Assembly (NCBI GenBank): GCA_021513715.1
Contig: CP084167.1
Coordinates: 1,120,001-1,184,000 of the forward strand
Direction: 5' to 3'
DNA: 64,000 bases
Origin: Candidatus Heimdallarchaeum endolithica
GTDB lineage: Archaea > Asgardarchaeota > Heimdallarchaeia > Heimdallarchaeales > Heimdallarchaeaceae
Positions 3,496 to 20,567 of this stretch are shown one piece after another. The notes below the pieces were generated by a model, which was not told the DNA's origin, did not search any database, and worked only from the letters and a program-made list of their open reading frames with translations. How positions within the stretch are numbered: position 1 is the stretch's first letter; every line of letters begins with the position of its first letter. The position numbers were made by a program, and so were the translations under genes.

Positions 3496-5066
3496 ACTAT
3501 TCAGATTTCAAACTTGAATTTAAGTTGGGGAAATGTATAGAGTGTGATGTTCACGGAAAAAGTTTGAGTGAAGCTAAAAGGATGGTAATACAAACTCTTA
3601 AAGAATGTCAACAAAAGGACATAAGAATCATAGATATCATTCATGAGTTGAAATTTTACGTAATTTCTTCAGGACTCTCCCCAACCAACCAACAAACTTA
3701 GCGAAAGTTGTGAAGACTGGCTTAAGAGAACATGAAAGACACAGTCTCAATTAAGTTCTCAAAGGGGTTCATCTCCTTATCCCGGGAACTCATAACTCCC
3801 AAAGGGAAAACCGGGTGTCGTGGGAATGAAACCTACGTCTTTAAGCATATAGCTCAAGACACTAGATAAATGAGAATTAAATATATAAAGATAGCTGAAA
3901 AGTTGTTACACTCCCCAATATTTTGTATTTTTTATTTAAGCAAATGTGTTTCAGGTTGTTATTGGTCTAATAACTCCACAAACTAAAAATTTAGTTTTTT
4001 ACGTAAAAAAGTATCTCATGGTTACAAGAGGGGAAGAGTTCTAAAAGACTATTTCAAGTCGGATTCTTTTCTTAAGGAAACAAGAAAATTGGGATGTGAA
4101 CTAATATACGAAAATGATGATATTTTCTTAAATCCAGGTAGAACTAGTTATTTAATTCGATTCATAAATGGGAATGAAGAAAAGAAATCGATTCTATCAA
4201 AAGAATGGATAGGTTTTATTGCCCATAAAGAATCCGAACAAAAGACAGAAAAAGATTTTCAACAAGGCTTCTATTATATTAAAGAAGAGACACAATTTTG
4301 TGATGAAGAAGAATCAATATTGATGAGTGATAAAGAAGATGATGAACTAGAAGAAGAATACACTCTTTTCACAGATGAAAATGAACAAAAGAGAGAAGAC
4401 CAAAATAATTATGAATTCCTCAGCATCACAGTGCCTGAACGAGAGTACACGATTGATAATATTTCTCCTAAAGATAATATTGCTGATTTAATTCACGGAT
4501 TCAGATTGCGAATTCCAGAATACTCTAGTTATGATTTATTACTAGGGTTAACTTATCAGGGTTCTGGAGATCTAACACTTCGAATTTGTAAATATAATTT
4601 CTATAATCAAATGATTCTACCTAAAGATAATATTGATTTTATTAAATCTGATAAAAAATTGCATTATATACATGATTTTGCAGAGGGGTTAGAAAAAATA
4701 ATTGACAATTTTGCAACTCTTAATAAGATTAAACAAAATAAAGAAAGAAAAGTCTTAAATTCAAGTTTAAGAACAGGAACAAGTTGTTATCTTGTGTACT
4801 CCCTCTGCTATTATAAAGATAATAGACATATTGGAATAGCTTTTTATCCAATCGACAATAAAACAATTTTTCGAATCTTTAGGGTAGATCTTCCTTATTC
4901 AGCTCAATATGAAGTAAATATAAGAACAGATCATTATGGAGGGCACAAATGTATAGACATCTCTATACAAGGATTAAACTACAAAAAATTTATCATAAGT
5001 TTTAAAGAACTGTTTATGAAAATTCTTGAATATTTGGATGAAACAGATACATTATTTATACTTTGA
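3492..5066 (+). pseudogene. Smr-domain (MutS2 C-terminal-like) nuclease protein split by a 373-bp insertion
   Basis: Removing 3645-4019 restores in frame CDVHGKSLSEAK...IIDIIH/GYKRGRVLK...NPGRT, the DLHG / IHG / NxG pattern of Smr domains, running into ORF 4089..5066; start uncertain. Confidence 0.8.
3645..4017 (-). mobile_element. 373-bp non-autonomous mini-element, copy 1
   Basis: About 8 substitutions versus the reverse complement of 9110-9482; TCATG at both junctions; imperfect terminal IR GAG-N6-TTTTACGTAA; interrupts the Smr gene. Confidence 0.92.
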
Positions 5067-8963: not shown

Positions 8964-9109
8964 GGAATTATATGTTTTTCATTATTTTGCAAGTTGATAA
9001 CCCTTCTTGTAAGGAGGTTCTAACTAGAAGAAGACCTTAAGGCAAGATAGAGTAAATTTATTGTTGATTTCATATTTTTCTTCTAATTTCTTGAAGAATT
9101 AATATCCAT

Positions 9110-9482
9110 AAGATACTTTTTTACGTAAAAAACTAAATTTTTAGTTTGTGGAGTTATTAGACCAATAACAACCTGAAACACATTTGCTTAAATAAAAAAT
9201 ACAAAATATTGGGGAGTGTAACAACTTTTCAGCTATCTTTATATATTTAATTCTCATTTGTCTAGTGTCTTGAGCTATATGCTTAAAGACGTAGGTTTCA
9301 TTCCTACGACACCCGGTTTTCCCTTTGGGAGTTATGAGTTCCCGGGATAAGGAGATGAACCCCTTGGAGAACTTAGTTAAGACTGTGTCTTTCATGTTCT
9401 CTTAAGTCAGTCTTCACAACTTTCGCTAAGTTTGTTGGTTGGTTGGGTAGAGTCCTGAAGAAATTACGTAAAATTTCAACTC
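9110..9482 (+). mobile_element. 373-bp non-autonomous mini-element, copy 2
   Basis: Same length as copy 1, inverted; junctions CCAT|AAGATAC and CAACTC|ATG. Confidence 0.92.
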
Positions 9483-9484
9483 AT
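9265..9484 (+). ncRNA. Predicted omega-RNA-like structured RNA in the mini-element (also about 3643-3862, minus strand)
   Basis: TATA-like TTTATATA 9238-9245 upstream; stems CGTAGG/CCTACG, CCCGG/CCGGG, AGACTG/CAGTCT; ATGAGTT 9334-9340 complementary to terminal AACTCAT 9478-9484. Confidence 0.6.
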
Positions 9485-9755
9485 GTTTCTGTTGGACATA
9501 AAAATGACAATTGATAGTGTTGAGTATCAAGGAAAGACAAGACCAAAACAACAACAATATGAACTTAAGCATCCAAAAGAATACAAGTTATATTGGGCAA
9601 CTTTTCCTGTAACAGACAGAAAACAAATTGAAGGCAAAGAGAAAATACAAATCTATGTTGATATAAAATTCTTCAGTAAGAAATTCAAGAGATATAAGAA
9701 ATATACAGATTTACCAGAAGAGGATTTAAAGAGGTTCATATATTCTATTCAATAA
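9483..9755 (+). CDS. Hypothetical protein (possibly C-terminal remnant of a decayed gene)
   Basis: 90-aa ORF starting at the element junction. Confidence 0.35.
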   Translation: MFLLDIKMTIDSVEYQGKTRPKQQQYELKHPKEYKLYWATFPVTDRKQIEGKEKIQIYVDIKFFSKKFKRYKKYTDLPEEDLKRFIYSIQ

Positions 9756-18054: not shown

Positions 18055-18096
18055 ATTATTATTATTATTAGTAGTAGTAGTAATAGTAGTATTAGT
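18055..18096. repeat. Compound trinucleotide microsatellite (ATT)5(AGT)4 plus degenerate units
   Basis: Read directly in the intergenic region. Confidence 0.85.
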
Positions 18097-18724
18097 ATCG
18101 TGTGTAGAACATTATTTTTTTGAAAGGTTTTTTGATTTTCTTTTTAGAGGTAGTACTTCCGCAATAAGTTGACCGATTTCTATAGGTTAAAATTATAGGA
18201 GTTCATACTATCATTGTCGTGTTCTCAATTCATACTTTTTGAGATAATTCGGAAGTACTATTAGAGGGGAGAAAAAAATAAAAACAACTTTAAATTTTTG
18301 AAACAGATGAACAATGAGAATTATCTAATCGAACAGTATAAGATGGAAGAAAAAGAGCACAAAAAAATAGCTGACTTACTTTCTGAATCTTTCTTATCAG
18401 ACCCTGCAGCTATTGATGAAGGAGCTTCTATTCTCTTTTCTGACAAAACGATAAAGTTAATTTTTGGTTCTCTAACTGTCAAGAAAAACTATTTTGTTAG
18501 AGCTGTTTACAAGAAAACAAATGAAATTGTAGGATTTTTGGGATTAATTCCTAGAGACTTCAGAATAAAGAAACAAACGTACAATTTCGCTATTCCTGCC
18601 TGGTTAGCTGTTCACCATCAACATAGAAGAAAGGGTTTAGCAAAAATGATGGGAGAAAAGATGTTAGAAATCGCACAAAAAGAATCTTTTGATGGAGGTT
18701 TTGCTTTATTTGAACCAGAGCAAC

Positions 18725-18967
18725 ATGATTTACTTTTTGCGAAGTTTGTCGAACTTAGTCTTTCAAGAAAAAAACAAAGAAAGAGAATTGTCAGTTTCTT
18801 GAGAACTTAATCCTAACATACAATGAAAGAAGAAGGATTAAGGCAGACGTCATACACGAATCGTGGGAATCATAAAGAAGAAAAGAGTTGTAAGCTCTTT
18901 CTTCACTCCACGAGAGACAAAAAAGAAACAATTATCCCTAAAATAGAGAAATTATTTTTCTTTTTGT
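18725..18967 (-). ncRNA. Predicted omega-RNA scaffold of tnpB
   Basis: About 240 nt between the tnpB stop and the element end, with stems TCGTGG/CCACGA, CTTAATCCT/AGGATTAAG, TCAAGAAA/TTTCTTGA; ATGATT complementary to terminal AATCAT. Confidence 0.7.
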
Positions 18968-20567
18968 CTACTGGGACTGCAACCAATGGCTGAGTCCTCG
19001 GCAAACAGTGTAGTGAGTAAGACTGAATTTTTGACCAGTAAAATAATCAGTAATAGTTGTAGTACGGGGACGAAAAAGATGACTAAGGAATTTACGAGCA
19101 ATATTTCTTGCCCCTGTCAAATCGGAGTGGAAGGTGTAATTGCAAATGGGACAGTGTACTAACCCTCTAACGGGACGAGAAACTTCTTTTCCACAACGGG
19201 AACAATGAGAAGATGTTCCTCTTTCGTCTAAAGTGAGAATGCGGTGAGATTCAAAACCTCTTAATATCAATGCTCGACGGAGAAGACCAAGAACTAAAGA
19301 AAAATTCCACTGGTGAAGTTTTCTACGAAAATAACGAGTACTTTTTTCTTTTCCTTTTTCTTTATCTTTTCTAACATTTTTGGGGTAACCTACGACGACG
19401 AAAAGGTCATACACTTTTGCATAACTCTCTATTGTCCGCACAACGTCGTTTATAAATTGGTGAATATAGGACCGTTTAACGTTTCTATATCTCCGACGGA
19501 GAAGACCGAGAAAACGATAAATTTGGTGTTTTTTACCCGACTGGTCATTTAAAGCCGCTTTCCTCTGAAGACGGGAAAGTTTGAGTTTATATCTATGATT
19601 GATTCTATTCCACTGTTTGGTATGCCAGAATTTTATTTCTTTAATAGTTAATTTCTTTTTGGGAGTTAGTAACACTCCTGCTGCAGGAATGTTTATCCCT
19701 AGATCTATTCCCAGCACAGCTGGAGGAAGAGAAGAAGAACTTTCTTTTTCAGGAGGATAGAAAGAAGGAGGAGGAAGAACTTTCAATTGGAAATACACCC
19801 ACCATTCACGTGTAGAACGTTTATATCTCAGTTCTAAACTTTTTATTTGTCCTTTCTTCAATTCTTTTTGATGGAAAGTGCTCATCTCTAAAGGTAACCA
19901 CAATCGTTGATGATACCTTGTCTTTCTTTTCCACGTGTCTAATGAGTCTCTTATTCCTACCCACCAACGAGAAATGGAGTTGTTTTTTTCTTTTGGTAAA
20001 TTAGTAAGAATAAATCTTTTTTTATTGATTAGTTGTCTTCGGGGTCTCTTTTTTGGAGGACGAGTGGCTTCAGGTCTATATCCTTGCTCGTACAGTTGTA
20101 CTGCTATATCTCTGCACTCTTGAAACTCATCGTGAGAACAATGGCGAAACATCTTTTTAAGGTCATGAGGAACAGTCTCTCTTCGCTCTTCTACTTTTTT
20201 TATCCTTGATGTTGTTAATGTTAGTTCATCTAACTTCCCTTTATGTACTCTTATTTCTCCGTTCTTTGTTTTCATACACAGTCTTCTTCTGTTGTGATGT
20301 ATAATTTTTACATACTTTTCTATTATCCTCGTGTCTCTCCCTGTTATTCTCCTTAATCTTTCCTTTTTTCTCCTCGTCAAAACTTCATTCTTTATTCTAA
20401 CTTTCAAAGTTTTGACTATCTTCTCCATCTTTTTTCCTCTTATTTTCCTTTTTCTTCTTCTTCTCTTCATTTATTTCTACTATTTTTTCTTATAAAAAGT
20501 CTCTTTTTTTTCTTTTTTTTAGTTTCTCATCCATACTCTCTATCCTAATGTTCGCAAAAAGTGAAAC
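18727..20567 (-). mobile_element. TnpB-only transposable element with inverted ends
   Basis: Perfect IR ACTTTTTGCGAA 18732-18743 / TTCGCAAAAAGT 20551-20562; AACATG at both junctions; host gene restored on removal; no transposase gene inside. Confidence 0.92.
18968..20470 (-). CDS. tnpB: TnpB/Cas12f-like RNA-guided nuclease with rearranged RuvC-II
   Basis: GIDLG (RuvC-I), VVVGYP, LDERGTS, CSRC/CPIC zinc finger, HSDLTGARNI (RuvC-III). Confidence 0.92.
   Translation of the reverse strand: MKRRRRKRKIRGKKMEKIVKTLKVRIKNEVLTRRKKERLRRITGRDTRIIEKYVKIIHHNRRRLCMKTKNGEIRVHKGKLDELTLTTSRIKKVEERRETVPHDLKKMFRHCSHDEFQECRDIAVQLYEQGYRPEATRPPKKRPRRQLINKKRFILTNLPKEKNNSISRWWVGIRDSLDTWKRKTRYHQRLWLPLEMSTFHQKELKKGQIKSLELRYKRSTREWWVYFQLKVLPPPSFYPPEKESSSSLPPAVLGIDLGINIPAAGVLLTPKKKLTIKEIKFWHTKQWNRINHRYKLKLSRLQRKAALNDQSGKKHQIYRFLGLLRRRYRNVKRSYIHQFINDVVRTIESYAKVYDLFVVVGYPKNVRKDKEKGKEKSTRYFRRKLHQWNFSLVLGLLRRALILRGFESHRILTLDERGTSSHCSRCGKEVSRPVRGLVHCPICNYTFHSDLTGARNIARKFLSHLFRPRTTTITDYFTGQKFSLTHYTVCRGLSHWLQSQ

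Follow-up and report, generated by a model that had tools for sequence, protein, structure and literature searches.

The element at positions 9110 to 9484 of the window is well supported as a real, recently mobile mini-transposon that carries only an omega RNA, with a covarying pseudoknot and its own promoter. The window is the whole stretch of DNA analyzed (64,000 nucleotides). It comprises bases 1,120,001 to 1,184,000 of a genome assembled as a single contig of 3.33 Mb with a G+C content of 29%, and the SSU rRNA of this genome is confirmed as archaeal. With moderate confidence, we read the mini-element as derived by deletion from a solo-TnpB transposon, non-autonomous and without a protein gene, with its RNA used as a guide in trans. 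It would combine the left end, the TATA promoter of the parental tnpB gene, and an omega-RNA scaffold that is complete as far as the right end. The features of the two window copies are as follows.

9110-9484, plus strand: mini-element copy 2, the whole mobile unit, 375 bp (copy alignment and empty sites)
3643-4017, minus strand: mini-element copy 1, 98% identical, with flanking CAT at 4020-4018 and a putative guide from 3642 downward
9107-9109, plus strand: left-flank CAT, conserved target and candidate TAM
9110-9150, plus strand: left end, with AAGATAC, the TTTTTTACGTAAAAAA palindrome, and a second palindrome; inverted-repeat partner of the right end
9238-9245, plus strand: TATA box TTTATATA, kept in nearly all copies
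9267-9484, plus strand: omega-RNA scaffold (nhmmer homology, alignment, per-clade RNAalifold, pair counts, and minimum free energy [MFE] folding)
9485-9504, plus strand: putative guide from the right flank, by analogy with TnpB systems

Copies, boundaries, and mobility

BLAST of the region against the whole genome retrieved 16 full copies of the mini-element. Fifteen were 92.6 to 100% identical to the window copy at 9110-9484, and one was 85% identical. Besides these, the genome has two variants whose left halves are unrelated, a single fragment of the left half, and six right-end fragments of 92 nt. Copy alignment placed the first base of the element at 9110, with the CAT at 9107-9109 outside it. 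The terminus reads ...TTTCAACTCAT, and the next base is usually G. The right flank differs copy by copy. The flanks quoted in the original prediction, GTTTCTGTTGGACAT from 9485 onward and GAATGATATCTATG from 3642 downward on the minus strand, are correct. Copies are present in both orientations, and some lie within genes.

The closed genome of the sister species contains at least six full copies (82 to 92% identity), plus variants. No DNA match to the mini-element was found in the remaining 29 genomes of the family or in the plasmid collection. Mapping the flanks of the sister-species copies onto the window genome gave two exact empty sites, in which the two flanks adjoin each other across a single NAT. 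These sites fix the boundaries of the element and show that it has been mobile since the two species split. A third locus has a decayed orthologous copy in both species. The clean empty sites come from other copies. At the locus orthologous to the window copy, the sister species has no such clean site.

The mini-element is non-coding. The window copy contains an 84-aa minus-strand open reading frame (ORF), which is kept in only 2 of the 16 copies and has no Pfam match.

The DNA directly left of the window copy differs between the species. A segment of 2.1 kb is absent here and present in the sister species (G005:1031178-1033314, L154). It carries an ORF of 447 aa and the 5' portion of another of 150 aa; the window ORF at 9483-9755 is the truncated rest of the latter. 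The ancestral target at this site reads ...ACTCAT/GTTTCTG.

The 92-nt solo right-end fragments were located at G000:1184271-1184363 (271 nt past the window end), 1375194, 2088844, and 1833471 and at G005:925626 and 2223887. They start exactly after an internal TTTCAT/G (window 9393-9395), so that an internal CAT/G looks to have served as a boundary.

Homology to TnpB omega-RNA scaffolds

The 3' flanks of the clade X and clade Y tnpB genes have long motifs in common with the mini-element. These are the first hairpin GUCUUGAGC...GCU.AGAC, the outer stem around a hairpin and the bulge (U/A)AAUGAGU, the segments GGAGAUGAACCC and GGGNAGAGUCC, and the terminus AACUCAU. An nhmmer profile was built only from 34 TnpB-linked 3' regions of clades X and Y, all from other genera, and was run against the whole 3.3-Mb genome. 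It matched exactly the 16 full copies and the two variants (E values of 6.9e-9 to 1.6e-4) and nothing else genome-wide. On this result, the right 218 nt (9267-9484) is a bona fide homologue of a TnpB omega-RNA scaffold. This homology, together with the lack of a conserved ORF, bears out the proposal that the mini-elements are TnpB-less transposons with a complete omega-RNA scaffold.

The same profile does not detect the scaffolds of the resident TnpB family A anywhere in the genome. The mini scaffold is of a more conservative type than the scaffolds now attached to the resident TnpB genes. There was no Rfam family match anywhere in the window. A covariance model of the 3' module alone, which has only 4 base pairs, did not recover the mini-elements in the window or the genome.

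Scaffold structure and covariation

The predicted helices of the window copy, all on the plus strand, are as follows.

9267-9290: H1
9290-9308: H2
9312-9316/9342-9346: outer stem H3
9319-9331: H4, inserted in H3
9334-9340: 5' strand of the pseudoknot, AUGAGU(U), within the loop closed by H3
9351-9353/9453-9455: long-range helix Pa
9360-9362/9445-9447: long-range helix Pb
Between Pa and Pb: internal loop GAUGAA/UAGAG
9367-9401: H6, with a UGU loop
9407-9412/9437-9442: H7
9418-9432: H8, which forms a branched stem with H7
9460-9477: H9, the terminal hairpin, followed by the last six to eight bases
9478-9484: 3' strand of the pseudoknot, (A)ACUCAU, the final bases of the element

Separate RNAalifold runs on the mini-elements, clade X, clade Y, and family A gave one architecture. 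The common order is H1, H2, H3 with H4, the bulge, Pa and Pb flanking an internal loop that contains AUGA, then H6 and H7/H8 (both within the span of Pa and Pb), H9, and the end. The UGU apical loop is a conserved feature of the H6 hairpin. The long-range helices change sequence between clades and keep their pairing.

Clade X and mini-elements: Pa GGA/UCC, Pb CCC/GGG
Clade Y: Pa AGA/UCU, Pb UCCU/AGGA
Family A: Pa UCG/CGA, Pb GUCU/AGAC

H3 also covaries, with CCCGG/CCGGG in the mini-element, CCGG/CCGG in clade X, TCGTGG/CCACGA in family A, and AGGT/ACCT in clade Y2. Within the mini-elements (26 distinct sequences from two species), the helices are 84 to 100% paired, and slid controls are far lower. 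The changes in these sequences are mostly wobble or compensatory. The MFE fold of a single mini sequence is -61.4 kcal/mol (z = -1.86). Recent amplification accounts for much of the within-genome conservation, since most copies are 93 to 98% identical.

The original prediction described a shared architecture of an outer stem, a hairpin, and a bulge in the mini-element and in the tnpB 3' region. RNAalifold and the alignment support this part. It also listed TCTTTCAT and CTAAGTT as shared features. We rejected both as coincidences, because they lie at non-homologous positions in the mini and family A RNAs. In family A, CTAAGTT lies on the 3' side of the central long-range helices, and in the mini-element it lies in a small hairpin.

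Terminal pseudoknot

The bulge had been proposed to pair with the terminus of its own element. The segments involved, ATGAGTT (9334-9340) with AACTCAT (9478-9484) and, on the minus strand, ATGATT (18873-18868) with AATCAT (18730-18725), were found as described. The gap between the strands is 137 nt in both the mini-element and the tnpB element. H3 closes the loop in which the 5' strand sits, which makes the pairing a true pseudoknot. Across 94 distinct sequences, 559 of the 564 cells for the six core positions are paired (~99%). Sliding the 3' strand by 1 to 5 nt reduced pairing to 18 to 59%. None of 2,000 shuffles matched the observed pairing, a figure that is inflated by the relatedness of the sequences. 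RNAalifold and the MFE fold each predict the terminal helix unaided, and the MFE fold includes it as 7 bp (AUGAGUU/AACUCAU).

Covariation in other copies had been suggested as the check on this pairing, and it is present. Most of the 94 sequences have the type AUGAGU/ACUCAU. The 25 family A copies have AUGAUU/AAUCAU, a compensatory double change. Locus L035 has AUAAGU/ACUUAU, a second compensatory double change. The 3' strand is ACUCGU in L038 and L042, which are two independent U-G changes. Clade Y2 and three mini-elements extend the helix to 7 to 8 bp. Breaks occur only in single copies or small groups, namely A' (AUGCGU versus ACUCAU), L105, L136, and a single copy that carries an insertion. 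Covariation supports the predicted pseudoknot next to the last base of the mini-element.

Promoter and minis in other genera

A TATA-like TTTATATA pointing into the structure had been noted at 9238-9245, and it is both present and conserved. This sequence or a one-base variant occurs in nearly all mini-elements, including the variants with unrelated left halves. The distance from its end to the first base of H1 is 21 nt, in the mini-elements and also in the X-type minis of other genera. The archaeal TATA box is centered near -26. With the 21-nt spacing, the box at 9238-9245 would place the transcription start no more than about 2 nt from H1. The TnpB-linked scaffolds do not have a TATA box at the equivalent position.

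A search with the clade X scaffold in other genera retrieved many copies without a tnpB gene. These X-type minis contain CAT, a 35-nt left end, the tnpB TATA box, a leader of ~20 nt, H1 directly after it, and the end AATAACTCAT. Compared with TnpB-bearing X elements, they have an internal deletion of the tnpB ORF that joins the tnpB promoter to the scaffold with the 21-nt spacing. The promoter is joined within 3 nt of H1 in both mini families. The design of ends, promoter, and scaffold thus recurs within this archaeal family. Two draft genomes (84% and 92% complete) carry X-type minis, and no X-type TnpB was detected in them. The minis may therefore be able to persist without a TnpB partner.

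Resident TnpB family A and its relatives

The window contains one solo TnpB element. Its features are as follows.

18725-20567, minus strand: solo TnpB element, family A (Pfam PF07282; both ends from copy alignments; flanking CAT at 20570-20568)
20428-18968, minus strand: tnpB of family A, 486 aa, with the start MEKIVK common to all copies
~19000 to 18725, minus strand: family A omega-RNA region, with pseudoknot strands 18873-18868 and 18730-18725

Family A has about eight intact and several broken copies in this genome and at least 10 copies in the sister species. Its relatives in other genera of the family are A' (57% identity to A), clade X (44 to 46%), and clade Y (38 to 39%). A class-wide search added no lineages, and in the 83 genomes of the class this TnpB clade occurs in this family only. 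A sequence search of solved structures with TnpB-A yielded nothing beyond weak matches at the C terminus.

Clades A, A', X, and Y retain the RuvC-I Asp, a relocated Glu, and the RuvC-III Asp, and we infer that they are catalytically active. The proteins examined (window 18968-20428, minus strand; L030, L031, L036, L041, and L043) do not have the canonical RuvC-II glutamate (VVVG[YF]P). All four clades have a glutamate just before the zinc ribbon ((D/N)E..TS..CS.CG), as in the RuvC-II-rearranged type. Helix H1 of the scaffold encodes the C-terminal peptide LSQWL of TnpB in the four clades.

Every TnpB-linked scaffold in the genus of the window genome is of the diverged A type. Family A differs from the mini scaffold by one base pair in the pseudoknot and has a different internal loop. 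The compatibility of TnpB-A with the mini RNA is in doubt for these reasons. The X and Y proteins (39 to 47% identity) are as distant from each other as A is from X, yet their scaffolds have the same core, which makes cross-loading of the mini RNA by TnpB-A plausible.

Four tnpB-less scaffolds of the family A type were found (G000:2097406-2097652, 2052910-2053091, 2267897-2268081, and 2350398-2350548). We rejected them as A-type guide-only minis because they are 5'-truncated remnants with no recognizable left end or TATA box. At G000:2492888-2492929 and 2492456-2492736 (minus strand), a mini-type left end (CAT/AAGATAC...) is followed by a decayed TnpB fragment. This may be what is left of the parent element, with TnpB, from which the mini-elements arose.

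The family A element (right end at 18725) sits within a GNAT acetyltransferase ORF (window 18298-18810), which by chance stays open into the element. Upstream of the GNAT gene, the spacer contains a trinucleotide microsatellite of ATT/AGT repeats (~45 nt, window 18055-18100).

Ends, target, and transposase

One motif of 20 to 26 nt is read inwards at both ends of the mini-elements and of the family A2 TnpB elements. Read in this way, both ends give CAT-G-N6-9-TTTTACGTAA in the genus of the window genome (g1) and ATG-N-TT-N-TTTTCCCCAC in clade X. The mini-elements and the family A2 elements of the same genome have in common the left-flank CAT, the TTTTTTACGTAA motif, and a terminal CAT followed by G. 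The flank had been described as CCAT. Its invariant part is CAT, found in the left flanks of 42 of 45 mini-elements and TnpB elements of all types, family A included, and a C at -4 is present in about half. We propose CAT as the TAM. The empty sites with their single NAT are as compatible with insertion after CAT as with a 2-bp duplication of AT within CATG.

The sole Y1 tnpA gene of the genome has lost its start codon to a mini-element and now reads ATGCCAT, mini-element, CGGGAT.... This copy is the oldest (85% identical) and lies outside the window at G000:925509-925892 (minus strand; locus L082/L123). The disrupted gene belongs to an IS605-like element with tnpA and a tnpB of 408 aa, and the insertion cuts off its start codon and promoter. 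No Y1 tnpA was found in the closed sister genome or in 25 genomes of the genus with clades X and Y. No transposase gene was found beside any of the 11 TnpB loci inspected. We rejected a classical IS200/IS605 identity, since the genome has no usable Y1 TnpA and the ends look like inverted repeats and not asymmetric. The two serine recombinases of the genome were also rejected as the transposase, as they are ordinary resolvase-type genes that do not adjoin such ends. The genome has three Cas1 loci. A search of five genomes with the X-type end motif gave only known elements and chance matches.

The solo-TnpB elements and the guide-only minis might form a transposon family of their own, with inverted-repeat ends and a CAT/G target, that moves without a Y1 or IS607-type transposase. 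The mini-elements of this genus would then be guide parasites, and the TnpB that loads their ancestral-type scaffold would meanwhile have acquired a diverged scaffold of its own. We consider this combined proposal improbable at present. If true, it would provide one nuclease with a dispersed, independently evolving guide repertoire.

Proposed mechanism and alternatives

The reading of the mini-element as a deletion derivative with a guide RNA used in trans implies the following steps. The TATA box would start an RNA of ~220 nt at H1. The RNA would fold as a TnpB-type scaffold, and its last six to seven bases would pair with the bulge ~140 nt upstream to form the pseudoknot. It would run on into the flanking DNA, which would provide a locus-specific guide. 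A TnpB made elsewhere in the genome, from family A (about eight intact copies) or A', may load this RNA. The complex would cut the empty site, CAT plus the guide sequence, and repair from the filled copy would restore the element. The whole sequence of steps follows the published homing model.

The mini-element may instead be an inert relic. It would be a MITE-like deletion product that has its scaffold only by descent, that is spread by an end-recognizing transposase, and whose RNA is not used by TnpB. This reading is possible, and we consider it doubtful. It fits the other scaffold type of the resident TnpB genes, the youth of most copies, the 5'-truncated solo right ends of both types scattered through the genome, and the X-type minis in assemblies in which no X-type TnpB was detected. 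The variants with unrelated left halves argue against it. These variants are 76 to 84% identical and retain the TATA box with its 21-nt spacing. They also retain all helices, with compensatory or wobble changes, and the invariant motifs of the TnpB-linked scaffolds. That both mini families have their promoter joined within 3 nt of H1 likewise argues against a relic.

The structured right part could also be needed as DNA, for example as single-strand hairpins or protein-binding sites for transposition, and not as RNA. The ends of IS200/IS605 elements typically carry hairpins, and H9 and the last bases overlap an inverted-repeat-like end in common with the left end. However, only ~25 nt are common to both ends and to the mini-elements and family A, which have the same ends and different interiors. 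The long-range helices and the pseudoknot span 90 to 140 nt and tolerate G-U and rarely A-C, as would suit an RNA read from this strand. A model of this kind gives no function to a TATA box directed at H1. We consider this reading very unlikely. The mini-element can scarcely be a small-protein gene or mainly a portable outward promoter for neighboring genes, since the 84-aa ORF that would suggest the former is missing from most copies and matches no family, and the TATA box that points at a gene starting near 9505 occurs in copies of both orientations and inside genes.

Significance

A guide RNA in trans remains the reading that we favor for the mini-element. It would be a clear case from nature, within the archaeal group nearest to eukaryotes, in which a guide RNA has been uncoupled from its nuclease and supplied with its own promoter. 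Such uncoupling is the modular step thought to lead from transposon OMEGA systems towards CRISPR-like and Fanzor-like arrangements. The comparative set spans four TnpB clades and two mini families, and it defines the scaffold for an uncharacterized TnpB clade of ~486 aa with a relocated RuvC-II glutamate. The covarying helices, pseudoknot, 21-nt promoter spacing, and CAT target of the set should be useful for testing this clade as an editor. The set also raises the question of what moves these elements in genomes without a matching transposase.

Comparison with known systems

Elements of this kind are already known. PMC10691335, citing Altae-Tran 2021, describes stand-alone omega RNAs of OMEGA systems that work in trans. 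PATEs often encode omega RNAs, and PATE-like elements that bear omega RNAs are present in Geobacillus stearothermophilus (Meers et al., PMC10055086). Like the elements in these two sources, the mini-element is mobile and protein-less and has ends in common with TnpB elements of the same genome. It also contains a complete guide scaffold, which can only be used in trans. It differs in its host, an Asgard archaeon, and in its archaeal TATA promoter, which comes from tnpB and is fused directly to the scaffold. It also differs in having inverted-repeat-like ends with no Y1 TnpA available and a scaffold type unlike those of all resident TnpB genes of the genus. What remains of interest is that its scaffold does not match that of the resident TnpB and that it has moved, in a way still unexplained, without a transposase.

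The omega RNA of ISDra2, as seen by cryo-EM, has a pseudoknot between nt -2 to -6 and nt -102 to -106 (PMC10097598). In both RNAs the scaffold ends at the right end of the transposon, where the guide (putative in the mini-element) begins, and long-range stems enclose hairpins. Both have a pseudoknot that links the bases immediately preceding the guide with a segment 100 to 150 nt upstream. The mini scaffold differs in having no detectable sequence similarity, a greater length (~218 nt), and pairing up to the very last base. The associated TnpB also differs, with ~486 aa and a relocated RuvC-II glutamate.

The PATEs of the haloarchaeon Haloquadratum walsbyi (PMC3119063) and archaeal MITEs are also short, multi-copy, coding-free derivatives of IS200/IS605-like elements in archaea. 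The mini-element differs from them in that homology and covariation identify its interior as a TnpB guide scaffold with a promoter.
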